Positions 644 through 21,724 of a DNA stretch of 37,208 nt are shown piece after piece; within the stretch, counting starts at the first letter, position 1; each line of letters starts with the position of its first letter. This DNA comes from a virus (lineage: Duplodnaviria; Caudoviricetes): positions 1 through 37,208 of the IMG/VR virus record IMGVR_UViG_3300016474_000918; one strand, 5' to 3'. The translations under genes and the position numbers were made by a program. The notes beneath the pieces were generated by a model. The model made no database searches. It was given only the letters and a program-made list of their open reading frames with translations, and was not told the DNA's origin.

Positions 644-654
644 TGAGTCCGCGC

Positions 655-1368: not shown

Positions 1369-1928
1369 CGCTCCCACGGCTCCTTGAACGGCAGGCCGAC
1401 GAACTCGAACACCTCGCGCTCGCTGGCCACCGCGCGCTCCTCGGTCCCCAGGCCCACCGGCCGGCTGAACCCGGTGCCATACGGATGCCACTGCCAGCCC
1501 ATCGCCTTGGCCGCGCTGGCGATCGCAATGTTCGACTCCCCCGGCCCCGTGCGACACACCAGGTAGTTGAACCAGTTCGCCTCCGTCGCCGCGAACAGAT
1601 CCACCGGCACGCGGCTGGCCACATGGACCGCCAGCTTGTTCTTGTCGCCCCACATGACCGACCCGTTGGCGTTGAGGCGCTTGGCCAGCACACCGGCGGC
1701 CAGCAGCCGATCCAGCACGGCATCCACCCGGCTGACCTGCTTCACGTCGAACAGCCCATCCCGCACCGTTTCCAGCTTGGGCACGAACAGGATCTCCACG
1801 TCGCCCACCTCATCCTTTCGCCGCCGCAACGAGCCGGCCACAATCAACCGGTCGGTCACCGGCTTGAGCGCATCGCACAACTCCTTGGCGACGGCCAACG
1901 CGGCCGCGCGGGGAAACCTGGTCTTCAT
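1365..1928 (-). CDS. Minimal DNA polymerase X family protein (palm + thumb only)
   Basis: VAGSLRRRKDEVGDVEIL nucleotidyltransferase motif, VPVDLF, RTGP and C-terminal SEREVFEFVGLPFKEPWER typical of the PolX thumb; coupled to neighbours by ATGA overlaps. Confidence 0.85.
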   Translation of the reverse strand: MKTRFPRAAALAVAKELCDALKPVTDRLIVAGSLRRRKDEVGDVEILFVPKLETVRDGLFDVKQVSRVDAVLDRLLAAGVLAKRLNANGSVMWGDKNKLAVHVASRVPVDLFAATEANWFNYLVCRTGPGESNIAIASAAKAMGWQWHPYGTGFSRPVGLGTEERAVASEREVFEFVGLPFKEPWER

Positions 1929-2224
1929 CGCGGGTCCAACTCAATTTTGATGCAGGCAGCGGGCAGGCCGGCCTTGTCGGGGTAGCATTCGGCCCAACCG
2001 GGGATGTTGCGCAGCGGCAGATTGTCGTAGTGGAACCCCACTACCTTGCCCGCCAGGCGCTCGGCCTTCCCGTAGCCCTTCGACAACACCCCCGCGCGGC
2101 CGATCCAGCACGTCTCCGCATTCCAACGCGGCCCGCGCAGCCGATACTCCGTGTCCTTGGTGCCCGCCTTGAACCGGTCGAAAAACTTCGCCTTGAGCGG
2201 GATGAAGAGCGGCTTGTCGCTCAC
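1925..2224 (-). CDS. ASCH/PUA-like domain protein (99 aa)
   Basis: GTG start overlapping the integrase stop; LFIPLKAKFFDRFKAGTKDTEYR matches the ASCH GxKxxExR motif, followed by LSKGYG. Confidence 0.7.
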   Translation of the reverse strand: MSDKPLFIPLKAKFFDRFKAGTKDTEYRLRGPRWNAETCWIGRAGVLSKGYGKAERLAGKVVGFHYDNLPLRNIPGWAECYPDKAGLPAACIKIELDPR

Positions 2225-3177
2225 ACCATTGCCTCCAGTGGACTCAACACATTCAACGCCTGCGGGGTCAAGTAACCGGCCGTCGTCTCCATGTTCGCGT
2301 GGCCCATCGCGGCCTGCACGTCGCGAATGTTTGCGCCGCGCTGCATCACATGGGTTGCGTAGGCGTGGCGGAGATGATGCGGCGTCACGCACAAGCCCAG
2401 CGCCCGCGCCGAATCCTTCACCGCCCGCTGCACATTCGCCTCGTGGCACCGCCAGCGCACCGTCTGGCCGGTGCGCGGATGCTGGCACGGACGAGCCGCC
2501 GGGAATACCCATGCCCATTGCCACGAGTGCGCCCAAGCCGGAAACTTCTTGGCCAGCAAACCGGGCAACGCCACCGGCAGCCCTTTGGCCTTGTCCATTT
2601 CCCACACAGCCCGCGCGTGCTTGAGTTGCGCCTTGAGTTCCGGCACCAGCGAACACGGCAGGGCCACCACGCGATCCTTGCCTCCCTTCGCGCCCCGGAT
2701 GATGAGCCGCGACTCTGCCAGCAGCACGTCCTTGACGCGCAGGTTGAGCGGCTCCGTCACGCGCAACCCCATGCCGTAAAGCATCCGCACCAAGAGCGCG
2801 GTAGGATAGCCACCCACGTCCGGCACGGCGGCGAGCAACGCGCGCACCTCGTCCACGCTCGGCGCAGTGCGGACCATAACCGGCTTCTTGGCGCGGAGCG
2901 AATCCACCTTGCCCATCTCGACTTTGAGCACCTCGCGGTAAAAGAACAGCAGCGCGCAGAAGGCTTGGTTTTGCGTGGATGCGGAAACCTCCTGCCGGGC
3001 CAACTGCGTGAGAAAGGCTTCCATCTTTTGCTCAGGCTTGGCGAGCGGATCGCATTCCTCCGACACAAAGCGAGCAAAGCGGCGAAGCCACATCGTGTAA
3101 CTCTCCTCCGTAGCCAGCGACAAGTGCCTGAGCCGCACCACGTCCCGAACCTTTTGAACCGCTTCCTCGGTTGTCAT
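2221..3177 (-). CDS. intI: Integron integrase (IntI-type tyrosine recombinase)
   Basis: N-terminal RLRHLSLATEESY and SASTQNQAFCALLFFYREVL; catalytic motifs LYGMGLRVTE, KGGKDR, HHLRH, MGH and TTAGY; integron-specific insertion LPGLLAKKFPAWAHSWQWAWVFP. Confidence 0.95.
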   Translation of the reverse strand: MTTEEAVQKVRDVVRLRHLSLATEESYTMWLRRFARFVSEECDPLAKPEQKMEAFLTQLARQEVSASTQNQAFCALLFFYREVLKVEMGKVDSLRAKKPVMVRTAPSVDEVRALLAAVPDVGGYPTALLVRMLYGMGLRVTEPLNLRVKDVLLAESRLIIRGAKGGKDRVVALPCSLVPELKAQLKHARAVWEMDKAKGLPVALPGLLAKKFPAWAHSWQWAWVFPAARPCQHPRTGQTVRWRCHEANVQRAVKDSARALGLCVTPHHLRHAYATHVMQRGANIRDVQAAMGHANMETTAGYLTPQALNVLSPLEAMV

Positions 3178-3188
3178 ATTATGCGAAC

Positions 3189-3202
3189 TGTTAAGGTGAA
3201 CT
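3189..3202. promoter_or_regulatory. Possible LexA box upstream of intI
   Basis: TGTTA-AGGT-GAACT matches 8 of 10 positions of the Verrucomicrobia-type TGTTC-N4-GAACA motif and lies 11 bp from the intI start codon. Confidence 0.4.
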
Positions 3203-3224
3203 TGTTGCCGAACCCTTGTTCGGC
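3203..3224 (+). other. attI-like site / first cassette junction (crossover G|TT at 3218/3219)
   Basis: GCCGAAC-CCTT-GTTCGGC next to the 5' end of intI. GTTCGGC is the exact complement of the R'' box of the first attC. Confidence 0.65.
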
Positions 3225-3228
3225 GGAC

Positions 3229-3483
3229 TTATCTTTGTGCCCATGCGTCCGCCGCTTCTTCGAGGTTGTTTGAAAATGCCATCGCCATGTCGTAGTCACC
3301 GCTGGCGGTGGAGTCCTGCCACAGTGCATAGGCACACGCGGCATTGTAGAGCTGGACGCCCAGCTTGTGTTGACGGTCGCCCGCCGAACCACGCGCTCCA
3401 GCCAACAGCGCTTCGCGTCTGTCGGCTTCGGAGCGCTGTTTCAGGGCGAGCGCTGTTTGCAGGTTTTCAGCTTGTTTTGTCAT
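3229..3483 (-). CDS. Cassette 1 ORF, hypothetical protein (84 aa), inverted
   Basis: Fills cassette 3219-3510; the ATG lies inside the attC1 loop. Confidence 0.65.
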   Translation of the reverse strand: MTKQAENLQTALALKQRSEADRREALLAGARGSAGDRQHKLGVQLYNAACAYALWQDSTASGDYDMAMAFSNNLEEAADAWAQR

Positions 3484-3516
3484 AGTCGCGCTGTGGCTGA
3501 GCTTGGGTCGTTAGGC
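3383..3516 (+). other. attC recombination site 1 (134 bp)
   Basis: R'' GCCGAAC, L'' GCTCCAGC, L' GCTGAGC, R' GTTAGGC. The arms GCTCCAGCCAACAGCGC / GCGCTGTGGCTGAGC pair leaving two extrahelical bases. Confidence 0.92.
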
Positions 3517-4038
3517 GGCGAAGCTCCACCGCGTTTCGTGTGTCCATCCCTTTCGGAAGTGGATTGCGCCGCACACAAAGCCGACCGGGAAGCCGACGCG
3601 ATTCCCCGGACCGTATATTCTGATTTCCTTCATCCATCCCCAGTCTTTGAGCGCGTTGAGTCTTGCCGCGCTGTTCATCGCCTTTGCTATTGGCATCAGC
3701 CATACGATGTCCGTTGCCAGCGTCATCGCGTGCGCCATGATTGCATCATACGTGCTATATGGCGGATTGCTTACAATCCAGTCCACCGGCTTTTGCCAGT
3801 CGAGGAAGTTTCGGCCTTCGCAGATTTCGCACCAGTCAGCGCCAGGCATCTCACGCCAGAACGCCCCACCACCCCGGCACGGGTCGAGGATTCGTCCAGT
3901 TGGCTTGAAGTGTTTCACGATTTCATGCGCCGTGGCGGTTGATGTCATCCACACGTCATTCGGGTTCGCGCCGCCTAACAAGGCGCTGGAGCGAATGAGA
4001 GGGAGCGAGGGCACGTCCACGTTGCAATCGAACATCAT
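3511..4038 (-). CDS. Cassette 2 ORF: small DNA amino-methyltransferase (probably N6-adenine), inverted
   Basis: Motif I ILDPCRGGGAF and motif IV IVSNPPYS. Starts in the attC2 loop (alternative start 4056); its TAA stop is part of the GTTAGGC core. Confidence 0.82.
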   Translation of the reverse strand: MMFDCNVDVPSLPLIRSSALLGGANPNDVWMTSTATAHEIVKHFKPTGRILDPCRGGGAFWREMPGADWCEICEGRNFLDWQKPVDWIVSNPPYSTYDAIMAHAMTLATDIVWLMPIAKAMNSAARLNALKDWGWMKEIRIYGPGNRVGFPVGFVCGAIHFRKGWTHETRWSFAA

Positions 4039-4077
4039 TTGCGTGCTCCCTCTCATCGCTCAGCTTGGTTGTTACCC
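3973..4077 (+). other. attC recombination site 2 (105 bp)
   Basis: R'' GCCTAAC, L'' GCTGGAGC, stem GAATGAGAGGGAGC / GCTCCCTCTCATC, L' GCTCAGC, R' GTTACCC (non-canonical, running into the phage backbone). Confidence 0.9.
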
Positions 4078-4419
4078 CACCGTCCCGTGGAATTCCCGGC
4101 GGATGCGTGCCACGCGCTCCGCCAATTCCTTGACCTGATGCTCCAGCGCGGCGCAGCAGTGGCGCACCTCGTCAGCGCTGGCGTGGCGCAGGTGGCGGTA
4201 GCCGCGCTGGCCGCTGATCACGCGCGCCGTGCGGTTGGCCCACGCGCGCACGCGCCGCTTGTTCGTCTCCGTGGCCACGATGCCCAAGGTGCCCAGCACC
4301 TCTTCCGCCGTGCGCCAGCCGCGCGCCTCCAGCAGCAACGCCTCAAACCGCCCCACCTCGTCATCCGCCGCCACAGGCGCGGCAAACAGAGGCAACTCGC
4401 TCAGGCTCGGGTTCATCAA
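4072..4419 (-). CDS. Hypothetical early protein, possibly winged-helix
   Basis: Overlaps the upstream gene (ATGA); its stop TAA lies in the GTTA core that ends the cassette array. Confidence 0.7.
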   Translation of the reverse strand: MMNPSLSELPLFAAPVAADDEVGRFEALLLEARGWRTAEEVLGTLGIVATETNKRRVRAWANRTARVISGQRGYRHLRHASADEVRHCCAALEHQVKELAERVARIRREFHGTVG

Positions 4420-5545: not shown

Positions 5546-6103
5546 TTACGTGTGTTTTTCGGGTAATCCCTCACCTGGAGCGTTCAACGCCTCTCTCCCC
5601 GCCGCCTCCAGCTCGCGCACCAGCGCGGCAAAGGCCGCGTCCGTGTCGCACCGGTTGGCCACCACGTGCACCGAGTGCAGCACCGTGCCGTGGTCGCGGT
5701 TGAACACCTCGCCGATGTCTGCCAGCGTGAGTTCGGTCAGCTCGCGGGCGAGGTGGCAGACAATGTGCCGCGCATCCGCCACGGCCTGCGGCCGTTTGCG
5801 GCCCATGATCTGCGCGCCACTTACGCCCGTGCGGCTGGCCACCAGTTCCACCAGCACCGCGAGGCTGACCTGCGGATCGTTCGACACCTGCGCGAACGCC
5901 CGCGCGGCCCGCACGCGCAGCTTGGCCACCTCGTCGCGCAGGGCCAGCACGCGCAGCAGCTGGGCCTTCTCGGCTTCCAGCGCGCGCAGCTCGGCCCCCA
6001 CGTCCAGCCCGCGCGCGGGCGGCAACGTCCCGCCCAGCACGGCCGTGCGCAGCGCCTGCACCTCAGGCGACAACCGGCGAACACAGGTAAGGCCTTCGCT
6101 CAT
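5546..6103 (-). CDS. DnaA C-terminal (domain IV) HTH protein with N-terminal coiled coil
   Basis: IMGRKRPQAVADARHIVCHLARELTELTLADIGEVFNRDHGTVLHS matches the DnaA domain IV signature (RDHxTV). Confidence 0.85.
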   Translation of the reverse strand: MSEGLTCVRRLSPEVQALRTAVLGGTLPPARGLDVGAELRALEAEKAQLLRVLALRDEVAKLRVRAARAFAQVSNDPQVSLAVLVELVASRTGVSGAQIMGRKRPQAVADARHIVCHLARELTELTLADIGEVFNRDHGTVLHSVHVVANRCDTDAAFAALVRELEAAGREALNAPGEGLPEKHT

Positions 6104-6105
6104 GG

Positions 6106-6324
6106 TCAGCTCCAGGAAGGCGGGGTGATGCCGGCCAGCCAGCCCTCCAGCTCCGCCTGGCTGGCAAACATGCGCGTGCCCCAATGCCACTCGACCACGA
6201 CGCCGCCCGTGGGCAGCAGCCGCAGGCCGAGCAGCCCGGTGACGCGCAACGGGTCCGGCTCACCCGAGGGCCGGGCGGAATCCGGGTGCGCGCGGAGGCG
6301 GAGAAGCAGTTCGGGGTTGCTCAT
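6106..6324 (-). CDS. Hypothetical protein (72 aa)
   Basis: Tightly packed in the early operon. Confidence 0.55.
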   Translation of the reverse strand: MSNPELLLRLRAHPDSARPSGEPDPLRVTGLLGLRLLPTGGVVVEWHWGTRMFASQAELEGWLAGITPPSWS

Positions 6325-6325
6325 A

Positions 6326-6889
6326 TCAGGCGGCCATTGACAGATTCTTGTCGGCGGCGATGGGCTTGGCCTTCAGCTTCAGCTTCTTGGGCTTGAAGGT
6401 GAACGTGTCCTTCTCCTCGATCCGCAGGCCGAGCCGCGCCAGCAGCTCGGGCGGCAGCAGGGCGAGCTGCTCGCGGCGCAGTTCGCGCGTGGTCTTGACC
6501 AGGTCATCAAACCGAAACGGCGTGGCGGCCTCGGCCGGGGACACGGCTTCGATCTCTTTCACGATGCGCCGCATCACCTCGTCCTCGCTGACCTCCAGCA
6601 CCACCGACTTGGAGGCGCGCGCCTGCGCGGCCCCGTGCGGGGTTTCCTTCGTGCGGCGGTTGGCTGGGAACCATTCGGGATGCATGGCCACGAGCGCGTG
6701 CAGCTCGCGCTCCACTGCCGCGTTGGCCTCTTCCAAGGCCAGCAGGTTGGCCCCGAACTTGTCGGTGATCTTTTGAAGCCGGCCGTTGGCCTTGGCGTTG
6801 AGCTTCTCCAGCGCGTTGTCGGTGCGTTGCAGCTCGGCCAGCAGCCGGGCCAGTTTCTTCAGGTCGGGGTCAATGTTGCGTTTGCTCAT
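6326..6889 (-). CDS. gam: Mu Gam-like host-nuclease inhibitor
   Basis: N-terminal coiled coil, WF...KETPHG...R and C-terminal LARLGLRIEEKDTFTFKP; size and position fit Gam. Confidence 0.8.
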   Translation of the reverse strand: MSKRNIDPDLKKLARLLAELQRTDNALEKLNAKANGRLQKITDKFGANLLALEEANAAVERELHALVAMHPEWFPANRRTKETPHGAAQARASKSVVLEVSEDEVMRRIVKEIEAVSPAEAATPFRFDDLVKTTRELRREQLALLPPELLARLGLRIEEKDTFTFKPKKLKLKAKPIAADKNLSMAA

Positions 6890-7860: not shown

Positions 7861-8039
7861 GATTCCCCCCGTTGCTTGGCGTCCAGCTCGGCCACCACCA
7901 GCGCCAGCGCAATCTGCCCTTCCGTGCCCATGCTTTTGACCAGATAGGCCAGCGCCCTGGCGTAGCTCTTAACTTTAACCTGCGTCGGCTCGTCCAGGCC
8001 AGCGATGACCCCGCGCACGTGAATGAGTTCGGCAGTCAT
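7857..8039 (-). CDS. Hypothetical protein (60 aa)
   Basis: MTAELIHV start overlaps the MuB-like stop (ATGA). Confidence 0.6.
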   Translation of the reverse strand: MTAELIHVRGVIAGLDEPTQVKVKSYARALAYLVKSMGTEGQIALALVVAELDAKQRGES

Positions 8040-9151
8040 TGCCACTCCCCTTCCTGCTGGCTCTGCTTCTCGATGCGAAGGTGCGCGTCGATGAAGTGTT
8101 CCCAGCTCAGTTTTTTCTCGGTGCGGCCGGCGAGCTTGCGCGCGTAGCGGATGCGCTCGGTGATGGCCTTGAGGCCGTCGCGCTTGCCGACCTGCCGCAG
8201 CACCTCGTAGGGCTGCTCGGTGACGTTCTTGACCGTGACCTCCAGCTTGGGCTCGGGAAACTCCAGCCCCGCGTGCTTGAGGATCGCGGCGAGGTCGCCC
8301 TTGGTCGGCATGGCGGGCAGGGCGACCTTGTGGACACCGCGCCGCCAGACCTGTTGCAGCTCGCCCTGGCTCGCGGCCTTGAGGTTGTCCAGGATGGTCC
8401 AGCTCAGGACCATGCCGCACTGCGTGAAGTCGTGGATGCGCCGCAGCACCTCAATGCATTTGAAGAAGCTCTTCACCTGATACGTGTGATGCAGCAGGTG
8501 AACCTCATCGAGGATCAGCAGCGTGCTCGGCGTCAGCGCCGTGCGGATGCGCCGGATCAAATCGGGCATGTTCGAGTTGGCCGAAATGCCGCAGGCCTGG
8601 GCGATGACCTTGACCATTCCGAACACGCCGCTGGCAGCTTCGAGTTCCACAAAGTAGGTGCGGCCGTGATTGTTCTGCTGCGCGTAGCGCTTGAGCGCCC
8701 ACGTTTTGCCGATGTGCGAAGGACCCCAAAGAATGACTGGCGTCTGGCTCTCGCGGCCGAGGTCGCACGCAAGGAAGATCTTGCGCGCCGTGGGCGTCTC
8801 GATGAACTCGGTGCGGCCACCGAGAAAGCGCTCCTGCTCCAGCCGCAGGAATTCGCGCGTGGCCTTGAGCAGGTCCGCCGGCACGTCGTATTTCTCGCCC
8901 GTGTCCGGGTTGGTGTGCCGGCCGGTGTAGATCTTGTAGAGCGTGTTGCGGGCATAGCCCACGCGCGCGGCAAAATCGTCCAGCGCGAGCGGGTGCGCCG
9001 GGTCAATGCACCAGCGGAACGCTGCCACCAGCGTGTCGCGCGCGGCGGGCGTGCAATGCGCCAGCCCGCCTTGGATCACGTCGCCGCTGAACTGCCACGT
9101 CGAGCGGATGCCGCCCAGCGCCTTCTCCTTCTCCTCATGTTCCTCACTCAT
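8036..9151 (-). CDS. MuB-like AAA+ transposition ATPase
   Basis: Walker A GPSHIGKT, Walker B LLILDEVH, N-terminal HTH; downstream of the transposase. Confidence 0.9.
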   Translation of the reverse strand: MSEEHEEKEKALGGIRSTWQFSGDVIQGGLAHCTPAARDTLVAAFRWCIDPAHPLALDDFAARVGYARNTLYKIYTGRHTNPDTGEKYDVPADLLKATREFLRLEQERFLGGRTEFIETPTARKIFLACDLGRESQTPVILWGPSHIGKTWALKRYAQQNNHGRTYFVELEAASGVFGMVKVIAQACGISANSNMPDLIRRIRTALTPSTLLILDEVHLLHHTYQVKSFFKCIEVLRRIHDFTQCGMVLSWTILDNLKAASQGELQQVWRRGVHKVALPAMPTKGDLAAILKHAGLEFPEPKLEVTVKNVTEQPYEVLRQVGKRDGLKAITERIRYARKLAGRTEKKLSWEHFIDAHLRIEKQSQQEGEWQ

Positions 9152-9374: not shown

Positions 9375-11606
9375 TTACAGCAGGTCTTCCGGTGCAAAGT
9401 CGTCTGCGTCCTGCACCGCGACAGCGGGCTGCTCCGCCGTCACAAAGTCGTCCGTGCCGCCCTCAAACCGCGCGACCTTGCGCGCGGTGCGGCGTTCCGC
9501 TTCCGGCATGCGGCCGGCCTGCACCGCGGCGTTGTGCTCGCGGAGGAAGGCGATGCGCTGCGCGTCCTCGCCGTGGCGCTGGCGCATGGGCGCGAGCTTC
9601 TCGTCGCGCCAGCGCTTGACCTGGCCAACCTGCTCAATGACCGCGTGCTGGTCCGCGCGGCAGGCCGCCACCCGGCGCGTGCACACGCTCACGAAGCGGC
9701 CGTCCGCGTCGTAGATGGCCATGCGGTCGGGGGCCATGGGATTGACCACGCAGAGATACCGCGCGCCCTCGCGCAACGGCTGGCCGCTGCGGTCGATGGC
9801 CGCGTAAGCGAGGCCGTCCGGGTCGATGTTCGCGTCGTCAAAACAGATCTCGCCGCCGCGCACGGTCTTGAGTTCGCCGCCGGCGACCGCGAGGTCACGG
9901 CCCACGATCTCCAGCAGCGCCGAGAGCGGCAGCTTCACCAAACCCTCGCGGCCCGTGGCCAGCGCCTCGGCGCGCGTCATGCGGCGCGCGCGGATGTGTT
10001 CCGGGTTGGCTTGGAGCGACAGCGCCAGCGTGCGCGCGGCGTCGGGCGTGAGCGTGGCGAGGTAGGCTTCCAGCTCGGTCACGGCCACCCATTGGCCGGC
10101 GACGGCGTCGAAGACTTCCTTCACGATGAACCCGCACTTCTCCCACTCCTTGCACGCGTGGTCAGGATCGTTGTTCAGGTCGGCAATGGCCTGATGCACC
10201 TGTGCAGCCACTTCGCTGAAGGTCAGCAGCGGCAGGCGGAATTCGGCCGCGCGATCGCCGGGCAGCAGGCCGATGGACTTCAGCAGCTGCACCGCCTGGC
10301 TGGCCTCGGTCTGGCTGTGCTCGGGCGAGTGCAGGCGGTCCTTGCCCACCTGACCGGGCAGGGCATCCACGCGGTTGCGCAGCCGGTTCCAAGCGCCTTC
10401 AATGGGCTTGAAACGCGGATTGCCGCCGCGCGGCGCGGCGCTCTGGCCACCGTGGGCCGGCTTGGAAAACCCTTCGCTCTTGGCGAACGTCACCTTGCCG
10501 CCCGTCGCGCGCCAGATGCGGGCTTGCAGGTCGTGGCGGTCGGGATGGTCGAGCGGGCGCTCGGGATCGCAGGTGTCACCGCGAATGGCGAAGGTGCCGC
10601 CCTCGACCAGGAACTGCGTGCCGGTGTCGCCGCGGAAGCCGGTCTCGGTCAGGAACGCGAGGACAAACCACATCGTGTCGCGCTCGTTGATCACGCGCAG
10701 CTTGTCCGCGTCCTGATCCCAGATCGTGGACTTCATGGTGTAGCTCACCATCGCGTCGCTGGCGTAGTCGTGCAGGCCGAGGCCGCGCGGGCGCACGGGC
10801 TTGGACTGGCCGGGCATCAGGCACTGGATGTCCTGCACCTCGTCGTCGCCGCTGATGATTTGGTAGGGCTTCACTCCGACGCGCGAGAACCGCGCCTTGA
10901 GCCCGATGCTCGCGGCCGCCTTCAGGCCTACGCGTGCGGCCTTGCGCTCGAAGCGATCCGGCGCGTGCCGCGTGAGGTTGCCGAGCGTCCAGCCCTCGGG
11001 CAGGCCGGTGGTGGGCAGGGCCTTGGGCCACTCCGCGTAGCCGGGAAACTCGCGGCCCCACGTGACGCCCTTGACGCGCTGGCCGTCGGTGGTGAATCCC
11101 ACCGTGTAGAGGCTGGCCAGATCACGGAACGCCGACGCCATCACGCGCTGATGCCGGTCCACGAGGAAGGCCCAGAGCCGGATGAAGTCCTTGCGGCCCT
11201 CGATGCCGCTGGCCTTCTGCCGTTGCCACCGCGCGAGCATGCGCCAGTCGCCGGCCTCGAAGAGCTGCGTGCCGCCGACGCGCCGGCCGCTGCGGGTGAA
11301 CTGATAGTAGAGGTTGCGGATGCTGCTCTCGCCCCACCCGAGGACGCCGTCCACGGCGAGCTGCCGCGCGTGGTAGGCAAAGCCGTCGCGAACATCCGGC
11401 CAGTGGTGATGGATGTCCTCGAAGACCCGCAGCATGCGGCGGATGCGCCCGCACTCTTCCACGCCCAGCGCCGCGAACTCGTCGGCATCCTCGAACGGGA
11501 TGCTGAACTCCACCGCCGGCCGCGCCGCCAAGCGCGCCGCCACGCGCGACTGCTGGCGGGCAAGGGCGGCCGGGCTGGCGGTGCGGTCGGTGAGGAGGAG
11601 GTTCAT
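9375..11606 (-). CDS. MuA-like DDE transposase (743 aa)
   Basis: ISGDDEVQD, FLVEGGT and GNPRFKPIEGAWNRL catalytic-region motifs; size; adjacent ATPase. Start trimmed to MNLLLT. Confidence 0.87.
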   Translation of the reverse strand: MNLLLTDRTASPAALARQQSRVAARLAARPAVEFSIPFEDADEFAALGVEECGRIRRMLRVFEDIHHHWPDVRDGFAYHARQLAVDGVLGWGESSIRNLYYQFTRSGRRVGGTQLFEAGDWRMLARWQRQKASGIEGRKDFIRLWAFLVDRHQRVMASAFRDLASLYTVGFTTDGQRVKGVTWGREFPGYAEWPKALPTTGLPEGWTLGNLTRHAPDRFERKAARVGLKAAASIGLKARFSRVGVKPYQIISGDDEVQDIQCLMPGQSKPVRPRGLGLHDYASDAMVSYTMKSTIWDQDADKLRVINERDTMWFVLAFLTETGFRGDTGTQFLVEGGTFAIRGDTCDPERPLDHPDRHDLQARIWRATGGKVTFAKSEGFSKPAHGGQSAAPRGGNPRFKPIEGAWNRLRNRVDALPGQVGKDRLHSPEHSQTEASQAVQLLKSIGLLPGDRAAEFRLPLLTFSEVAAQVHQAIADLNNDPDHACKEWEKCGFIVKEVFDAVAGQWVAVTELEAYLATLTPDAARTLALSLQANPEHIRARRMTRAEALATGREGLVKLPLSALLEIVGRDLAVAGGELKTVRGGEICFDDANIDPDGLAYAAIDRSGQPLREGARYLCVVNPMAPDRMAIYDADGRFVSVCTRRVAACRADQHAVIEQVGQVKRWRDEKLAPMRQRHGEDAQRIAFLREHNAAVQAGRMPEAERRTARKVARFEGGTDDFVTAEQPAVAVQDADDFAPEDLL

Positions 11607-11614
11607 GGTGGGGT

Positions 11615-11643
11615 GGCGATTGCCGATTGCCGATTTGCGATGG
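11615..11643 (-). repeat. Heptamer tandem repeat, family A (CAATCG[G/C])n; other copies at 16111-16131, 20313-20357 and 30598-30625
   Basis: CATCGC AAATCGG CAATCGG CAATCGCC, directly upstream of the transposase start. Confidence 0.8.
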
Positions 11644-11644
11644 C

Positions 11645-12379
11645 TCAGTGACGGGCCTTGAGCTTCACCGCCTTGAGGTTGGCCACGAAGCCGGCCCACT
11701 GCGCTTCAAGGTCATGGCGCAGCGCGGCGAACTGCGCCGGGTTCTCCTCGGCCAGCTCGTGGATCATGGCCTTGATCTTGGGCGTGCTCAGGACGTGCAG
11801 CGTCTGCTTGAGTTCGCCCAGGTGCTGCGCCAGCTCGGCCAGCTCGCGCTTGCGCTTCTGCTCGGGCGTGGGCACCTGCGGCGGGCGCACGCGCTTGGGC
11901 TTCTCCGGGTTGCGCACGCGCGCGGCCCACTTGTAGAGCGCGGTCAGGCTGCTGGCCCCGCTGGCCTCGATGACTTCGCGCCCGAGTTCTTCGAGCTGCG
12001 CCTCATCGGGCTGGGCGTCGCCGTTGCCCAGCAGCGCCACCACGCGGCCCGCCAGCTCCGGCGCGCGCTGCGCCGTGGCATCGCCCACGGCCACCCAGCG
12101 CTTCATGGTCTTCAGCTTGTCCTCGCCAAAGTGCGTGACGAACCAGTCGTTCACCTGCCCGTGCGCGAGCTGCTGCCGCTGCACTTGCAGGATCTGGCCG
12201 ACCATCGCCACGCGCGCGGCGTTGATGCGGAAGCCGGCTTCCATCTGCGCTTCGGTCTTGCTGATCGCGTCGATCAGCGCGCGGATGGCGGCGATGCGGT
12301 CGTGTTCCTCGCGGAACGCGGCCACCGCGCCGGTGGGCAGGTGTTGGAGGGCGTGGGGGTTGCTCATCTCGTGGCTCAT
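11645..12379 (-). CDS. Hypothetical helical protein (244 aa) upstream of the transposase
   Basis: Coherent ORF with GC3-rich codons; operon position. Confidence 0.7.
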   Translation of the reverse strand: MSHEMSNPHALQHLPTGAVAAFREEHDRIAAIRALIDAISKTEAQMEAGFRINAARVAMVGQILQVQRQQLAHGQVNDWFVTHFGEDKLKTMKRWVAVGDATAQRAPELAGRVVALLGNGDAQPDEAQLEELGREVIEASGASSLTALYKWAARVRNPEKPKRVRPPQVPTPEQKRKRELAELAQHLGELKQTLHVLSTPKIKAMIHELAEENPAQFAALRHDLEAQWAGFVANLKAVKLKARH

Positions 12380-16582: not shown

Positions 16583-16833
16583 GCGACACCCAACTCATCC
16601 GCACCCAGACCATGCTGGACGTGCTCGGCACCGCCGCCGGGCTCATGTCCGACCCCGTGCTGCACGCCATGATGTGCGCCCGGCTCGGCGAGAAGATCAC
16701 CCTCAGCGAGTTTGAAGCCCTGCGTGCCCACGCCGAGCGCGAGCGCTGGATCACCGGAGTGCGCAGCCAGTTCACCGATCAGATGCGCTGGAAGATCACC
16801 GACGCGGGCCGCGTGGCCCGTTCTGAAATGTGA
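16579..16833 (+). CDS. Mu gp26-like small winged-helix protein
   Basis: GTG overlapping the upstream stop; ERWI...WKITDAGR; precedes the small terminase. Confidence 0.65.
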   Translation: MSDTQLIRTQTMLDVLGTAAGLMSDPVLHAMMCARLGEKITLSEFEALRAHAERERWITGVRSQFTDQMRWKITDAGRVARSEM

Positions 16834-17409
16834 ATGAGCAAGACCCGCAAGCCCAGCATCCCCAAGGACGGCCGGCCCGTGCCGCCGCTCACGCGGCTGA
16901 AGCTCGCCGTCGCGGCCATGCCCATCGAGCAGGCCGAGCAGCTTTACTCGCTCTTGGACTCCATGTCGGGCTCGGAGTGGCGGGCGCATGTGGCGCGCAC
17001 CTTGGGCATCAACCTGAGCAGCGACGCGAAGGTCACGAACTTTCGGGCCTGGTTTCAGGACTACCAGGACTTGCAGGACTTCAACGCGGCGATGGAGCGC
17101 GACGAGGCCGAGCTGGCAAACTCGGGCAAGAGCGCCGAGGAGATTCGCGAGCTGGTCATCCGCAAGGCCTACGCCCGCGCCGAAGCGAAGCGCGACAGCG
17201 AGCTTTCCATGAAGGTCATGGACCGCGACCTCTCGTTGTCGGACGCCCGCCGCAAGGACAAGGAACTGGCCCTGAAGACCGAAGCCCTCGCGCAGGCCGA
17301 GCGCAAGCTGAAGCTGCTGGAGGCCAAGGCCGCCGAGATCAAGGACGTGGTCAACTCGACACTCTCGCCCGAGGAGCAACGCGCGCGGCTCAAGGAAATT
17401 CTCGCGTGA
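16834..17409 (+). CDS. Putative terminase small subunit (Mu gp27-like)
   Basis: Helical 191-aa protein directly upstream of TerL; C-terminal LSPEEQRARLKEIL. Confidence 0.65.
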   Translation: MSKTRKPSIPKDGRPVPPLTRLKLAVAAMPIEQAEQLYSLLDSMSGSEWRAHVARTLGINLSSDAKVTNFRAWFQDYQDLQDFNAAMERDEAELANSGKSAEEIRELVIRKAYARAEAKRDSELSMKVMDRDLSLSDARRKDKELALKTEALAQAERKLKLLEAKAAEIKDVVNSTLSPEEQRARLKEILA

Positions 17410-18830
17410 AAACGGCGGCGGCCAAACCCAAGCGCGCCACCCGCGACAGCACGGTGCCCGCCAACCTCTCGCCCAAGGAGCTGCTCTATCCGTTGCAGCG
17501 GCGCTTTCTCGACGACGCGGCGCAATACAAGATCGGCGTGACCACGCGCCAGTGGGGGAAGTCCACCGTCACCAGCGGCGAGGCGGTTCACAACTGCCTC
17601 GTTGATCCCGGCACCAAGTGGGTCTGCATGAGCGCGGGCGAGCGGCAGTCGGTGGAATGGCTCAACAAGGCCAAGGAATGGCAGGCCGCCTACAAGCTCG
17701 CGATTGCCGACGTGGCCGAAGATCGCGGCGGGCTGGCGGAAGGGCTGCTGCGCAGCTCGGAGATCACGTTCGCCAACGGCTCGCGTATCATCGCCATTCC
17801 TGCCAACCCCAGCACGGCGCGCGGCTACTCGGCCAACATCATCCTCGACGAGTTCGCCTACCACGAAGACCCGGACGCGATCTGGGCCGCGATGTTTCCC
17901 AGCACGACGAACCGGCTGGCCGGCACGTTCCTCGACCGCTGGCGCGCGATGCTCAAGGGCGAGGACACCAACATCCGCCGCGATCTCAAGCTGCGCGTGG
18001 TGTCCACCTTCAACGGGCGCAACAACAAGTTCTTTTCGCTCTGGGAACGGGCCAAGGAAAACGGCTACTCGGCGCACCGTGTCACCATTCACGACGCGAT
18101 TGCCGACGGCATGCCGCTCGATGCCGAGAAGCTGCGGGCCGCGCTGGATGACCCCGAGGCGTGGGCTCAGGAATACGAGTGCGAGCCCATGGACAGCAGC
18201 ACGGTGTTGCTGCCCTACGACCTGATCGCCACATGCGAAAGCGCCGAGGCCACGGTCACGGTGCCGCCCGAGTTCTTTGTCGGCAGCGCCGCGCGCGCGC
18301 TGTTCATCGGCTGGGACTTTGCCCGCAAGCGTGATCTCTGCGTGCCGTGGATCGGCGAGCTGATGGGCGACGTGCTCACCTCGCGCGAGATGATCGAGCT
18401 GCGCGGTGTTTCCACGCCGGACCAGATCGACCTGATGCGGCCCCGGCTCAAGGCCGCGCGCCGCGTGTGCGTGGACTACACCGGCCCCGGCGTCGGCTTG
18501 GGCGACTACCTGGTCAAGGAGTTCGGCGAGTGGAATCCGGCCCGGCACGAGTTCGGCAAGATTGAACTCTGCACGTTCACCAACACGCTCAAGGTGGACC
18601 TGTTCAGCAAGCTGCGCATGGCCTTTGAGCAGCGGCGCATTCGCATCCCCATCCACCGCGCGATTCGCGAGGACCTGCACTCGGTGCAGCGCGTGACGAC
18701 CGCGTCCGGCAACGTGACCTACCGCGCGCCCCACACCGACGACGGCCACGCTGACCGCTGCACGGCGCTGGCGTTGCTGGTGCGCGCCGCCCAGCAAGAC
18801 CGCGCCAAATTCGAGGCCATCCTGATCTGA
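17406..18830 (+). CDS. Terminase large subunit (Mu gp28-like)
   Basis: TTRQWGKST (Walker A), PANPSTARG, IILDEFAY (Walker B), STFNG; nuclease motifs GWDFARKRD, VDYTGPG and DGHADRCTALAL. Confidence 0.93.
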   Translation: MKTAAAKPKRATRDSTVPANLSPKELLYPLQRRFLDDAAQYKIGVTTRQWGKSTVTSGEAVHNCLVDPGTKWVCMSAGERQSVEWLNKAKEWQAAYKLAIADVAEDRGGLAEGLLRSSEITFANGSRIIAIPANPSTARGYSANIILDEFAYHEDPDAIWAAMFPSTTNRLAGTFLDRWRAMLKGEDTNIRRDLKLRVVSTFNGRNNKFFSLWERAKENGYSAHRVTIHDAIADGMPLDAEKLRAALDDPEAWAQEYECEPMDSSTVLLPYDLIATCESAEATVTVPPEFFVGSAARALFIGWDFARKRDLCVPWIGELMGDVLTSREMIELRGVSTPDQIDLMRPRLKAARRVCVDYTGPGVGLGDYLVKEFGEWNPARHEFGKIELCTFTNTLKVDLFSKLRMAFEQRRIRIPIHRAIREDLHSVQRVTTASGNVTYRAPHTDDGHADRCTALALLVRAAQQDRAKFEAILI

Positions 18831-18831
18831 T

Positions 18832-21042
18832 ATGACCCTGCTGCCCCGACTCCGTGCCGCCCTGCACGCCTTGACCGCCGCGCCTGCGGCGTCGGGCGTC
18901 GTGCAGCGAGGCAGCATCGCGCCGTTTGACAAGCTGTTCTTCACCGACGGCGTCGTGGGCGATCAGCTCAAGGAGAGCTACGCCAACTCGGTCTGGGTGC
19001 AGCGTGCGATCAAGTTCGTGGCCGGCCCCATCAGCGCCGTGCCGTTGTGCTTTTACGAGGGCGACACCGAGGTCGAGTCACCCGAGCTGCACGCGTTCTG
19101 GCAGCGGCCGGCAGTGGGCCTGACCTTCTCCGAGTTTGTCACGGCATCAGTGGGCTGGCTGAAGCTCAAGGGCGAGGTGTTCTACCTGCTGGGCGATGAC
19201 GCGCTCGTGCCGTTCCCTGAGCAGCAGCGCCAGTGGTCGCCGCTCATCGTGGCCCGGCCGGACGCGATGGATCACGTCGTGCAGAACGGCGAGCTGGTGG
19301 GCTGGCGGTATCGCGACGCGCAAGGCAAGCAGCACCCGCTGCTGCCCGACCAGGTCATTCACGTGCGCGCGTGGAATCCCTACGATGCGTGGCGCGGCCT
19401 GGGTGAGCTGGAGGCCGCCTACATCGCGGCCGATGCCGACTACCTGGCCGGCAAATTCGAGCGCAACCTGATGCGGAACAATGGCGACCGCGGGCCGATT
19501 GTCTCGGCCACCAACGGCGTCACCGACGAGCAGCGCGACGCGATCGTGGCCGCGCTGCGCCAGAAGGCCTACAGCACCGCCGCCGGCAACTTCCGTCCGC
19601 TGTTTCTCACCAACGACGTGAAGGTGCAGGACCCGCAGGTGCTCGCGCCCGACGCCAACTTCGTGGCCTCGCGGCTGCACAAGCGGCACGAGATCATGCT
19701 GGCCTTTGGCGTGCCGCCCTCGATGGCCGACGTGGTGGCCAGCTACAGCGTGGGATCGGCGAGCGACCGCTTCCGCCTCATTGAGGACACCTGCATGCCG
19801 GCGAGCGCGCAGCTCGCCGATGCCATCGGGCGCGTGGCGTCGCGGCAGACCGGCCGGTCGCTGGTAGCGGAGTTCGACTGGGACGAGCACACCGTGATGC
19901 AGCAGGTGCGCGCCGAGCGGCTCGCGAGCGCCAAGGATCTGTTTGATCGCGGCTGGGCGTGGCAGGAGATCAACGACTACCTGCGGCTCGGCGCGAAGCC
20001 GTTCCGCGGCTGGGAGCGGCGCTACCTGCCGTTCAGCTTGCAGGAGGTCGGCAGCGCTCCTGCCGCGCCCGTGCAACCGCCCGGCACGCCGGCCGCGATG
20101 GACACCAGCGACGGCGAGGACAGCCCGGTGGTGGACGAGTTGGCCAAGCTCTTCGCATCGCGCAATGCCCATGGCGGTTTGCAACCGCCGCCCCACGTCT
20201 GCGCGGCGGCTGACGAATATGCGGCCAGCATCGAGGGCGCGGTGCGCACGATGAAGGCGCGGGCGCGGAAGTTCTTCTTCGAGCAACGGGCGCGGGTGTT
20301 GCGTGAGCTGGACAAGCGCAAGTCGGCGATTGGCAATGGGCAATCGACCATCGCCAAGGCCCTCGGCGACGACATCTTCAACCAGGAGTTCGAGAACCAA
20401 GCCATTCGCTCCAGCTTTCAGCCGGTGCTGCTGAAGCAGTTTGAGTTCGGCGGCGTGCAGCTCTGGCAGGAATACGGGCTCGGCGACTTCGTGCTGCCAC
20501 CCAAGGCCGCCACCGATTACCTCGCCAAGGCCGGCACGCGATGGGAAGAGATCAACGGCCTCACCCACACGAACCTGCGCGAGACGCTCATCGACGGCCT
20601 CAACAACGGCGAGAGCTTCGACCAGCTCGCCGACCGCGTGCGCGCCGTGTTCGATGCCGGGCAGGACATCCGCGCCGACACCATCGCATTGACCGAGACC
20701 AACACCGCGATCAACGCGGGCCGGCACGAGAGCCTGATGGAATCGCCGCTGGAGCTGAAGGTCTGGATGTCCGCCAACTTGGAAAACTCGCGGCCCGAGC
20801 ATCAGGACGCCGGCGAGCGCTACGCCCAAGGCATTCCCAAGGACCAGCCCTTTGTGCTGGCCAACGGTGCAAAGCTCATGTTCCCCGGTGACTCCTCCCT
20901 CGGCGCTGGCCCCGGCGACACGATCAACTGCAAGTGCCACATGGGCGCGGTGAGCGCCTTGAAAACACTTCCCCCGGCGGGAAGGACGAAAAGCCCAACG
21001 CGGCGCACCCTGCTGACGTGGCCCCAGTGGGCCAAGCATTAA
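18832..21042 (+). CDS. HK97-type portal protein fused to a MuF/SPP1-gp7-like minor head domain
   Basis: Portal motifs LKGEVF, DQVIHVR...PYDAWRGLG and IMLAFGVPP; C-terminal RADTIALTE, KVW, RPEH, LMFPGD and INCKC. Confidence 0.88.
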   Translation: MTLLPRLRAALHALTAAPAASGVVQRGSIAPFDKLFFTDGVVGDQLKESYANSVWVQRAIKFVAGPISAVPLCFYEGDTEVESPELHAFWQRPAVGLTFSEFVTASVGWLKLKGEVFYLLGDDALVPFPEQQRQWSPLIVARPDAMDHVVQNGELVGWRYRDAQGKQHPLLPDQVIHVRAWNPYDAWRGLGELEAAYIAADADYLAGKFERNLMRNNGDRGPIVSATNGVTDEQRDAIVAALRQKAYSTAAGNFRPLFLTNDVKVQDPQVLAPDANFVASRLHKRHEIMLAFGVPPSMADVVASYSVGSASDRFRLIEDTCMPASAQLADAIGRVASRQTGRSLVAEFDWDEHTVMQQVRAERLASAKDLFDRGWAWQEINDYLRLGAKPFRGWERRYLPFSLQEVGSAPAAPVQPPGTPAAMDTSDGEDSPVVDELAKLFASRNAHGGLQPPPHVCAAADEYAASIEGAVRTMKARARKFFFEQRARVLRELDKRKSAIGNGQSTIAKALGDDIFNQEFENQAIRSSFQPVLLKQFEFGGVQLWQEYGLGDFVLPPKAATDYLAKAGTRWEEINGLTHTNLRETLIDGLNNGESFDQLADRVRAVFDAGQDIRADTIALTETNTAINAGRHESLMESPLELKVWMSANLENSRPEHQDAGERYAQGIPKDQPFVLANGAKLMFPGDSSLGAGPGDTINCKCHMGAVSALKTLPPAGRTKSPTRRTLLTWPQWAKH
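20960..20988 (+). promoter_or_regulatory. Second copy of the 29-bp late motif, upstream of the protease/capsid genes
   Basis: Lies inside the portal 3' end, 56 bp before the protease ATG. Confidence 0.55.
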
Positions 21043-21044
21043 AG

Positions 21045-21722
21045 ATGAACCCGATCCGCCGCCAACTGAACCCCGTCGCCCGCGTCCTCGATGAGGCGCG
21101 CGGCCTCGTCGAATACGTGGCCAGCGACGAGACGGTGGACAGCTACCGCGAGATCATCCGCGCGAGCGGCTGGCGGTTTGACCTCTTCAAGAAGAACGCG
21201 CCCTTCGTGGACAGCCACGACTACAGCAGCATCGAGAAGAGCCTGGGCAAGGTCGTGGACTTCGCGGTCAAGGGCGGCAAGCTCATCGAGACCGTGCAGT
21301 GGGCCAAGGACGTGGCCGAGAACAAGCTTGCGCAATATGGCTGGGCCATGGTGCGCGCCGGCTTCCTGCCCGCCGTGTCGGTCGGCTTCTTCCCCACCAA
21401 GGCCGTCAGCCGCGGCGACGCCGCCTTCAACCAGCAGCTCACCGAGCTGGGCCTGCCGGGCGATGCCGCCGTCCGCACCATTTACACCGAGCAGCAGCAG
21501 ATCGAGCTGAGCGCCGTCATCATCGGCGCGAACCCCAACGCCCTGGCCAAAGCCTACAAGGCCGGCGCGCTCGATGACGCGGCGCTTGATTTCCTTTCCG
21601 GCGAACACGCGAAACGCGAAACCGCCCGCACGGCTGTCGGCCCTGATGCCGCCGTGCTGGCCCGGCATCAGGCGCGCGAGCGATTCCTGGAGCAGTTACA
21701 CACCACCATCAAATCCCAGTAA
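21045..21722 (+). CDS. Prohead maturation protease (HK97 family)
   Basis: ASDETVDSYREII, FVDSHDY, SVGF and ELSAVIIGANPNAL motifs. Confidence 0.9.
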   Translation: MNPIRRQLNPVARVLDEARGLVEYVASDETVDSYREIIRASGWRFDLFKKNAPFVDSHDYSSIEKSLGKVVDFAVKGGKLIETVQWAKDVAENKLAQYGWAMVRAGFLPAVSVGFFPTKAVSRGDAAFNQQLTELGLPGDAAVRTIYTEQQQIELSAVIIGANPNALAKAYKAGALDDAALDFLSGEHAKRETARTAVGPDAAVLARHQARERFLEQLHTTIKSQ

Positions 21723-21724
21723 GC

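Follow-up and report, generated by a model that had tools for sequence, protein, structure and literature searches.

Integrons are usually regarded as bacterial devices: promoterless cassettes lie correctly oriented under Pc, and the integrase is SOS-controlled. The locus described here, an integrase gene with two cassettes set among the early genes of a phage, raises the question of whether such a device could work for a phage, and of how its genes would then be expressed. An earlier note on this DNA had proposed a complete integron built into the early operon of a transposable phage, which would use the integrase as its own platform for capturing accessory genes. We favor, at a probability of about three in four, a related reading: the integron is complete, belongs to a lineage that lives in phages and occupies the end of a Mu-like early operon, and its cassettes would be exchanged by IntI and expressed from the early transcript.

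The carrier phage and the parts of the integron

The window—the whole stretch analyzed, 37,208 nt, to which all coordinates refer—is IMG/VR record IMGVR_UViG_3300016474_000918 (Caudoviricetes). The carrier is a transposable (Mu-like) freshwater phage, with the following landmarks:

9375–11699, minus strand: MuA-like transposase of the early operon (phrog_310, E 7e-16)
8036–9151, minus strand: MuB-like transposition protein of the early operon (phrog_296, E 9e-27; Pfam AAA_22)
6326–6889, minus strand: Gam, early operon (phrog_491)
4072–4419 (start may be 4395), minus strand: phage early gene 5' of the array, with homologues in the Mu-like loci L148 and L023
1925–2224, minus strand: gene 3' of intI (phrog_625); its GTG start overlaps the intI TGA by 4 bases
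644–645, plus strand: TG, probably the phage's left end, interrupting a host gene for D-lactate dehydrogenase (50–643)

The TG at 644 is joined to host DNA, and the interrupted dehydrogenase is 97% identical to an intact protein of 335 aa; the host is likely a verrucomicrobium. The record holds the left end without the right, and no clear Mu-end repeats were found at 640–900. The MuA-like transposase is without a Pfam match, and the gene at 1925–2224 is presumably ASCH-like, by motif. Searches of IMG/VR for close phage relatives by way of MuB, the PolX-like gene and the methyltransferase found no locus, nor did a DNA-pattern search with the gene at 4072, and the attI pattern matched the contig of locus L001 only. 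A MuA query had no match in the records of L023, L001 and L022, so that L023 is called Mu-like solely by its homologues of MuB and of the gene at 4072.

Sites of the attC type were sought with a purpose-built covariance model, R1, which differs from that of IntegronFinder and was made from 31 attC sites of other loci, seeded by an arm-complementarity heuristic. Both sides had changed in 16 of 19 pairs of the training set, and slid controls were much lower, in a set selected for arm complementarity. Within the window R1 gave 22 matches, only two of which exceed 16 bits (the third-ranked reaches 15.8). The parts of the integron are as follows:

2221–3177, minus strand: intI, integron integrase of 318 aa (TIGR02249, 275.5 bits against a curated cut-off of 265)
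3178–3224, plus strand: attI, a compact docking site that abuts the intI start codon; crossover G|TT between 3218 and 3219
3219–3510, plus strand: cassette 1, 292 bp, found as a unit in other contigs
3383–3516, plus strand: attC1 (R'' 3383–3389, R' 3510–3516); R1 51.5 bits, bottom-strand fold z -2.19, the weaker fold
3511–4071, plus strand: cassette 2, 561 bp
3973–4077, plus strand: attC2 (R'' 3973–3979, R' 4071–4077); R1 52.4 bits, bottom-strand fold z -4.96
3229–3483, minus strand: inverted gene of cassette 1, 84 aa; attC1 covers its first ~34 codons
3511–4056, minus strand: cassette 2 gene, inverted, a predicted DNA methyltransferase with an NPPY motif (phrog_799, E 6e-23)

The best PDB match of IntI is 2A3V (VchIntIA; listed as IntI4), over residues 8–315 (E 1.9e-43). 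It spans the IntI-type insertion stretch at ~193–245, whereas two Xer matches already stop at 181–186. Across 58 IntI relatives R139, K164, R270, H293 and Y302 are invariant and H267 nearly so, residues that we take to be the catalytic set (R-K-H-R-H-Y). The attI crossover stands 40 bases from the intI ATG, and the site is conserved as far as GTT, with divergence directly after it, in L001, L002 and other loci. Crossover GTTs at 3218, 3510 and 4071 delimit the two units, and in each unit R'' is exactly complementary to the first 7 bases. These results bear out the anatomy that the earlier note had read from the letters, namely a complete integron with its integrase, attI, two attC sites and self-consistent cassette boundaries, as well as the transposable backbone.

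The attI and both attC have normal polarity relative to intI (intI on the minus strand, attC on the plus strand). This layout nevertheless departs from the canonical bacterial one: the cassette genes are inverted, and Pc-like matches are at chance level, with two weak plus-strand promoter sites (one at 3154–3182, the place of Pc) against 0.9 expected. On the minus strand the promoter scan found no sigma-70-like site for intI, whose start is only 40 bases from the crossover. A hairpin across the junction of attI and cassette 1 (3205–3226) scores as terminator-like.

Inverted cassette genes, here and across the family

Gene inversion is the mechanistic core of this locus and was absent from the earlier note. 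Both cassette ORFs lie on the strand opposite their attC, start inside their own attC, read toward intI, and terminate at the following R box or close to it. The methyltransferase gene starts at an ATG at 4056, 4038 or 4035, all in attC2, and its stop codon falls in the R' box of attC1; the stop codon of the phage gene at 4072–4419 likewise sits in the R' box of attC2. For the cassette 1 protein, 18 relatives were found at E<=0.001, and the part encoded by attC includes conserved residues. Of 13 natural changes, 7 are silent in its frame, the best of two open frames; the protein is without a match in Pfam, PHROG or PADLOC and without a usable Atlas match. The cassette 2 protein has 211 relatives, some with PF02384, and shares a common core (90%) with P0121 under a different leader, but is itself without a Pfam or PADLOC match.

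We compared 31 phage-type loci (131 cassettes) with 12 chromosomal-type loci (65 cassettes), under labels that were not blind, the chromosomal group having been named once orientation was seen; 10 of the 31 phage-type loci come from MAG or metagenome contigs, four of these without a hallmark match. Pfam matches fell on the inverted strand in 26 of 131 phage-type cassettes and on the canonical strand in none, a pattern that holds (14/87 and 0/87) in the 21 loci that are viral by the independent classing of IMG/VR. Chromosomal-type cassettes gave the opposite picture (canonical 8/65, inverted 0/65). Single-strand open frames, defined as open across at least 85% of the cassette body, were inverted in 46 and canonical in three of the phage-type cassettes (68 were open on both strands and 14 on neither), against 0 inverted and 48 canonical in the chromosomal type. 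Orientation calls rest on these two counts. A rule based on the longest start-to-stop ORF was rejected because it miscalled phage cassettes, whose genes start or stop beyond the interval; a codon model proved weak on the 65 chromosomal cassettes (17 canonical, 8 inverted, 40 uncalled). As far as these sequences go, inversion is thus a trait of the family and not of this phage alone.

The setting of intI differs in parallel. The median distance from its ATG to the crossover is 35 bases in phage-type and 167 in chromosomal-type loci (with one visible heuristic error per set), and intI shares its strand with the following gene in 28 of the 31 phage-type loci; in 8 of 10 chromosomal-type ones that gene runs the other way. 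A crude measure of the gap from stop codon to next ORF gave no separation of the two types.

Pfam annotates few of the phage-type cassettes (105/131 are without a match). Methyltransferases make up 12 of the 26 annotated, which also include Mom, QueC, PAPS-reductase and Lar; DNA modification and anti-restriction together account for 16/26. By family names, the cargo appears to lean toward anti-defence functions.

Because the cassette genes are inverted, they are likely read by the early transcript of the phage. We suggest a single leftward transcript that would run through the gene at 4072, cassette 2, cassette 1, intI and the gene at 1925, so that the cassette genes and intI would be expressed together. 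IntI would then be produced in lytic growth or on induction, and not from an SOS-controlled promoter of its own; phage replication would expose single strands on which attC can fold, and the integrase would probably excise and insert cassettes by standard attC/attI recombination. In bacteria, available accounts describe SOS control of intI and attC folding on single strands in replication (PMC8946536), and bottom-strand selectivity and correct cassette orientation (PMC5027507). An incoming cassette would land at attI, here the promoter-distal end of the array, and expression would therefore depend less on cassette order than it does in bacterial integrons. The system would be mainly a port through which small early genes, chiefly anti-restriction genes that modify DNA, are captured and exchanged.

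Natural variants and the agent of exchange

Cassette 1 occurs as an exact unit (3218–3506) with other flanks in public contigs of X2, X4 and X5 (two studies); in the X4 contig it is preceded by an attC right arm and not by attI. Conversely, attI is followed by other first cassettes, by that of L001 in X4 and by others in X2, X3 and X5. In X4, attC2 stands in front of another gene body, and in X8 the GTT at 4071 adjoins the right arm of a different attC. The variants differ exactly at G|TT, which fits the action of an integrase. When the four variable bases of R'' are compared in phage-type arrays, all agree with the start of the same cassette in 78 of 91 cases and with the downstream R', at the next start, in 2 of 91. 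Cassette content at this attI thus varies in nature, a point that the earlier note had proposed to check, and the recurrence of the same cassette and attI in other arrangements points to a gene-swapping system common to phages. The evidence for mobility is all comparative, and other copies of IntI could have been the agents. No joint across either cassette appeared in the contigs of the source run X1, contigs being prone to drop rare variants; among the runs examined, the body of cassette 2 is covered in X1 only. Two joints in X2 (1928–4067 and 1931–4074) were rejected as clean deletions, since unknown letters (at least 255 before 4067 and 4074) lie between their ends; they are merely other content at the integron slot.

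The integrase gene has its own history. In close backbone relatives (X3 record 12, X4 record 20), the gene at 1925–2224 is followed by other sequence without intI, and high-depth contigs of X2 and X5 hold only an intI remnant of 108 bases with attI; the integrase is therefore dispensable for the backbone. The intI of this phage is a chimera with a breakpoint near residue 275 (about 2357 in the window): residues 1–274 are 96% identical to IntI of L001, a non-Mu phage whose attI also matches that found here, while residues 277–315 are 100% identical to P0013 and 46% to L001. Members of the family are found in other Mu-like phages, at different operon positions, and in phages whose terminases are unrelated. 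Consequently, domestication by this phage, which the earlier note had read from the overlap of intI with the next gene, lacks support in that form, and "built into" the operon is an overstatement. What stands of the capture platform is a true integron fitted to a phage operon, with variable content and a cargo rich in modification genes; the adaptation belongs, on the comparisons made here, to an integron lineage that lives in phages and passes from one backbone to another. The intI–attI module may move between unrelated phages by homologous recombination within intI, with the present chimera as one product, and may often be lost, leaving attI and cassettes to be served in trans.

The same observations give some weight to an improbable but serious alternative, in which the integron is real and IntI is idle or marginal, exchange being due to integrases of the host or of co-infecting phages, or to homologous recombination of attC arms, while intI is being lost. 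Relatives with a stub or without intI would be expected under such loss, the placement of attC2 before another gene body can be explained by homologous recombination, and the chimeric C-terminus could impair activity. Verrucomicrobial chromosomes also carry related IntI (50–56% identity) and similar attC sites. Against this, the gene is full length with every catalytic position retained, its junction with the gene at 1925–2224 is also kept in locus L150, dozens of phage loci have an intact intI with its own compact attI, and the breakpoints fall where integrase action would put them.

A second alternative, that a fragment of a host chromosomal integron was taken up as a passenger, is largely refuted and very improbable. 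Such captures are on record for Vibrio and Shewanella prophages (PMC9892861). The likely host belongs to a group with chromosomal integrons of its own, and the cassettes have a lower GC content (0.57–0.58) than the phage (about 0.66). The nearest IntI relatives (79–89% identity), however, are in viral contigs; a tblastn search of 50,697 GenBank phages found nine records, every one below 40% identity. Chromosomal arrays moreover have canonical genes, mostly a long intI–attI spacer, and different cargo, whereas the two cassette genes of this phage are inverted, in keeping with its operon. Least credible of all is a tyrosine recombinase that serves the phage genome by integration or dimer resolution, with hairpins that are terminators or by-products: such enzymes do usually integrate phage genomes, and the hairpin at 3205–3226 resembles a terminator, but this phage carries MuA- and MuB-like genes, its TG end lies within a host gene, the family members L010, L119 and L140 carry a separate phage integrase beside IntI, and the hairpins match the attC model and vary as cassettes do.

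Relation to known systems

In Mu-type phages, the far end of the early operon, beyond A, B and gam, is taken up by the accessory (semi-essential) region with its small, variable genes. This phage likewise has small, variable genes there; the difference is that the variable slot is bounded by integron sites and has its own integrase. With bacterial integrons (class 1; Vibrio VchIntIA; the sedentary Verrucomicrobiota integrons L034, L035, L155, L160 and L174), the phage system has in common an IntI above the TIGR02249 cut-off with the IntI-type insertion, an attI by the intI start, attC with R and L boxes, bulged bases and normal polarity, and variation at G|TT. It differs in its cassette genes, which lie on the opposite strand and start in attC; in its intI, which is 40 bases from the crossover and co-oriented and overlapping with phage genes; and in its cargo of methyltransferases and other phage early genes.

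That integrons occur in phages is already published. As described in the available text of Qi et al. 2023 (PMC9892861), phage genomes contain complete integrons and CALINs (attC clusters), methyltransferase cargo is read as anti-restriction, IntI1 recombined five of six phage attC, and the three integrons that are complete represent captured elements of Vibrio, Shewanella or class 1 origin; that text describes neither a phage-specific IntI lineage nor systematic gene inversion. The integron phage M16-3 of that study is P2-related and not Mu-like (PMC8541194). Cury et al. 2016 reported reverse (inverted-integrase) integrons in Treponema and others (PMC4889954), in which, according to the portion available, intI is likewise co-directional with the cassette genes. 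There, however, intI is flipped relative to attC, whereas in this locus the intI/attI/attC geometry is normal and the cassette genes are flipped; membership in that class is ruled out, with intI on the minus and attC on the plus strand. The inverted layout of cassette genes was not found in the literature searched.

In phages, identical recombination parts would thus be put to use with a reversed coding strand and with an integrase that belongs to a lytic-phase operon. Were it active, the system would give phages a site-specific, exchangeable supply of anti-restriction genes of their own, mirroring the anti-phage cargo reported, in the parts available, for bacterial integrons (bioRxiv 10.1101/2024.07.02.601686, 10.1101/2024.07.02.601719). 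The compact IntI–attI pair with two native cassettes is amenable to the standard assay, and intI stubs with a lone attI offer a possible route to phage arrays without an integrase.

A broader proposal, which we hold tentatively and consider rather unlikely, is that phages run an integron network of their own that feeds bacteria, that cassettes are made there, and that verrucomicrobial sedentary integrons descend from phages. In the IntI tree, the canonical Verrucomicrobiota chromosomal clade is nested within the phage IntI radiation (99% SH-aLRT), so that sedentary integrons would descend from phage ones; monophyly of the inverted type is rejected (p-AU 0.001) in a test that omitted L165, a mostly canonical locus labelled inverted in the trees. 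If true, the proposal would open the origin of cassettes and integrons, an unsolved question, to direct test. The overlap of attC with genes bears on the origin of cassettes: since attC overlie the 5' ends of phage early genes, phage genomes would be one site of cassette formation. In this phage, attC1 encodes the conserved N-terminal helix of the cassette 1 protein.

Integron parts and inverted cassette genes

2221-3177, minus strand: intI, the integrase gene
3178-3224, plus strand: attI
3219-3510: cassette 1, gene on the minus strand
3511-4071: cassette 2, gene on the minus strand
3383-3516, plus strand: attC1
3973-4077, plus strand: attC2
1925-2224, minus strand: next gene after intI
4072-4419, minus strand: phage early gene (gene 4072)

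An earlier note had read the gene at 2221-3177 as an integron integrase with its catalytic residues, and this reading holds: the 318-aa IntI scores 275.5 against a curated integron-integrase cut-off of 265, aligns over its full length with 2A3V, a solved integron integrase, including the region beyond the end of Xer matches, and retains R139, K164, H267, R270, H293 and Y302. The two attC sites proposed there are exactly the two that a covariance model, built from 31 attC-like sites of other loci with the window left out of training, places far above the rest (52.4 bits at 3973-4077 and 51.5 bits at 3383-3516; the next best of 22 matches reaches 15.8). The proposed cassette sizes of 292 and 561 bp and the R-box pairings are correct, and the attI-like site, 3178-3224, is borne out by relatives in which this stretch is shared as far as the GTT and diverges immediately past it. 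Three consecutive GAAC...GTT units lie within 3178-3220. Judged by its parts and geometry, the element is a real, complete integron and a member of the integron family.

The presence of an integron thus stands; what had been overlooked is that both cassette genes are inverted. Each lies on the minus strand, starts within its own attC and points toward intI. Cassette 2 encodes a predicted DNA methyltransferase; many of the 20 relatives inspected have attC-type leaders, and the closest shares the core with a different leader. Cassette 1 encodes an 84-aa member of a small unnamed family; 7 of 13 natural changes in its frame are synonymous, and the conserved N-terminal part of the protein is encoded within attC1. 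From its sequence, the element would work as the integron family does, but its cassette layout departs from the canonical one of bacterial integrons, in which genes read away from intI.

Qi et al. (2023; PMC9892861) screened 10,705 phage genomes and report three complete integrons and 17 CALINs; most of these were captured from bacteria, and methyltransferases are among the cargo. Inverted-integrase integrons are described in the available portion of Cury et al. (2016; PMC4889954), although that flip differs from the flipped cassette genes seen here. The available text of PMC13366799 and PMC8541194 holds nothing further on the inverted-gene layout, and no published phage-specific integrons with inverted genes were found in the literature searched, in which subscription journals were thinly covered.

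Because intI, attI and attC keep their normal arrangement, standard bottom-strand recombination (PMC5027507) would be expected. We infer that the flipped genes and then intI would be read by the early transcript of the phage, with no need for Pc, the cassette promoter near attI in bacterial integrons; IntI production would be timed to phage replication, in place of the LexA control described for many bacterial integrons (PMC8946536, available portion).

Layout across related integrons

Loci of related integrases were fetched from viral (30), genome (80) and metagenome (80) sources; the model search covered 79, and strands were compared in a non-redundant set of 31 phage-type and 12 chromosomal-type loci. 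With these labels assigned non-blind, Pfam matches fell on the inverted strand in 26/131 phage-type cassettes and on the canonical strand in 0/131 (14/87 and 0/87 in the 21 IMG/VR loci alone), and in chromosomal-type loci on the canonical strand in 8/65 and the inverted strand in 0/65. Open-frame counts, inverted vs canonical, were 46 vs 3 in phage-type and 0 vs 48 in chromosomal-type loci. Cassette bodies open on both strands number 68/131 in phage-type arrays vs 5/65 in chromosomal arrays, and inverted frames extending back into attC keep no single fixed frame at R'' (34, 24 and 14 of 72).

In phage-type loci attI adjoins the start of intI (median 35 bases vs 167 in chromosomal-type loci), and the gene after intI is co-directional in 28/31. 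The phages that carry these loci are diverse, with terminases of three families; in the other Mu-like carriers (L135, L148, L023 and L150), intI occupies differing operon places. Annotated cargo (26 cassettes; 105/131 are without annotation) includes Mom, QueC, PAPS-reductase and Lar alongside 12 methyltransferases, and is compatible with an anti-restriction role at the level of the family. Two cassettes, 4 and 8, of the 12-cassette array of L135 share one body (185 bp, 100% identical). In several phage loci some attC sites lie beyond intI, off the main array (L001:2265-2385, L008:4464-4875, L009:17045-17138, L010:7601-7690, L114:8978-9684, L133:5352-5458, L148:4529-4639, L115:2651-3333); these are likely cassettes inserted at secondary sites.

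In quick IQ-TREE trees of 133 and 59 rows, with sampling seeded from the phage side, every scored member of the clade that holds the window IntI is of the inverted type. Nested among the inverted-type rows is a clade (99%) of verrucomicrobial chromosomal integrons with the canonical layout; L037 and L038 also sit between inverted-type rows, at other places. The sister group, from Opitutaceae, has the canonical layout as well (canonical-only 10 and inverted-only 0 of 21 cassettes, one from L071). When 36 of the 133 rows were put to an AU test, excluding long branches, near-duplicates and the mislabelled L165, monophyly of the 23 inverted rows was rejected (p 0.0011). It follows that the layout has changed more than once, with either type possibly the original one. 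In L165, a mostly canonical, chromosomal-looking array, the first cassette (1969-2322) appears inverted, starting within its attC and stopping in the attI R box; a host integron may here have taken up a cassette of the phage type.

Signs of cassette movement in natural populations

In phage-type arrays, R'' pairs with the first bases of its own cassette in 78/91 cases and with those of the next cassette in 2/91, the signature of cassettes that move in circular form. In Logan contigs from further sequencing runs, freshwater and aquatic, cassette 1 recurs as a unit (3218-3506) between different neighbours (X2, X5 and X4; two studies), preceded in X4 by an attC arm rather than attI. In these contigs the attI of the window is also followed by different first cassettes, one being that of L001; in X8 another attC adjoins the GTT at 4071, and in X4 attC2 stands before a different gene body. 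Cassette content next to this attI differs between natural sequences. These variants look like signs of cassette movement, by the window IntI or another integrase.

History of intI and the phage backbone

Residues 1-274 of IntI are 96% identical to IntI of L001, a phage in which no Mu genes were found; residues 277-315 are identical to P0013, a related integrase of a type present in L150, which shares with the window phage the order intI, next gene, replication gene. In close backbone relatives (X3 record 12 and X4 record 20), 1500-2213 or 1500-2216 is covered and other sequence follows, 480 and about 1000 letters without intI. X2 contigs link the PolX-like gene to gene 4072 via other sequence. 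In some X2 and X5 contigs intI is cut down to its first 108 bases, with attI, or just attI is left; these contigs may belong to another phage. The 108-base stub spans a weak plus-strand promoter-like match (3154-3182). On sequence evidence, intI is a chimera and dispensable. It follows that this Mu-like lineage has had an intI here, that the greater part of the gene was traded with a different phage, and that other members of the lineage no longer have it. The integron had been described as built in and domesticated; adaptation to phage operons survives, but as a property of the integron lineage, and the intI-less relatives, the stub contigs and the L001-type residues argue against its being built into this phage.

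The record, incomplete in IMG/VR (37,208 bases), holds a transposable phage, with a transposase, MuB-like ATPase and Gam on the minus strand and head and tail genes on the plus strand (profile searches). Its early operon runs leftward, and the integron is found close to the distal end. The likely left end of the phage begins with the TG at 644, within a host gene for D-lactate dehydrogenase (97% identity to an intact protein); 4/5 of its matches with a taxon name are Verrucomicrobia. The head module (16830-23038) is HK97-type, not Mu-type: terminase phrog_2, a portal fused to a head-morphogenesis domain, and HK97 capsid TIGR01554. The stand-alone PolX-like gene (1365-1928; DNA polymerase beta palm and thumb) is optional, missing between its neighbours in L150 and one X2 contig, and occurs in five distinct other intI-bearing loci. 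A weak TIGR00362 match gives the early gene 5546-6130 a domain like the C-terminal one of DnaA.
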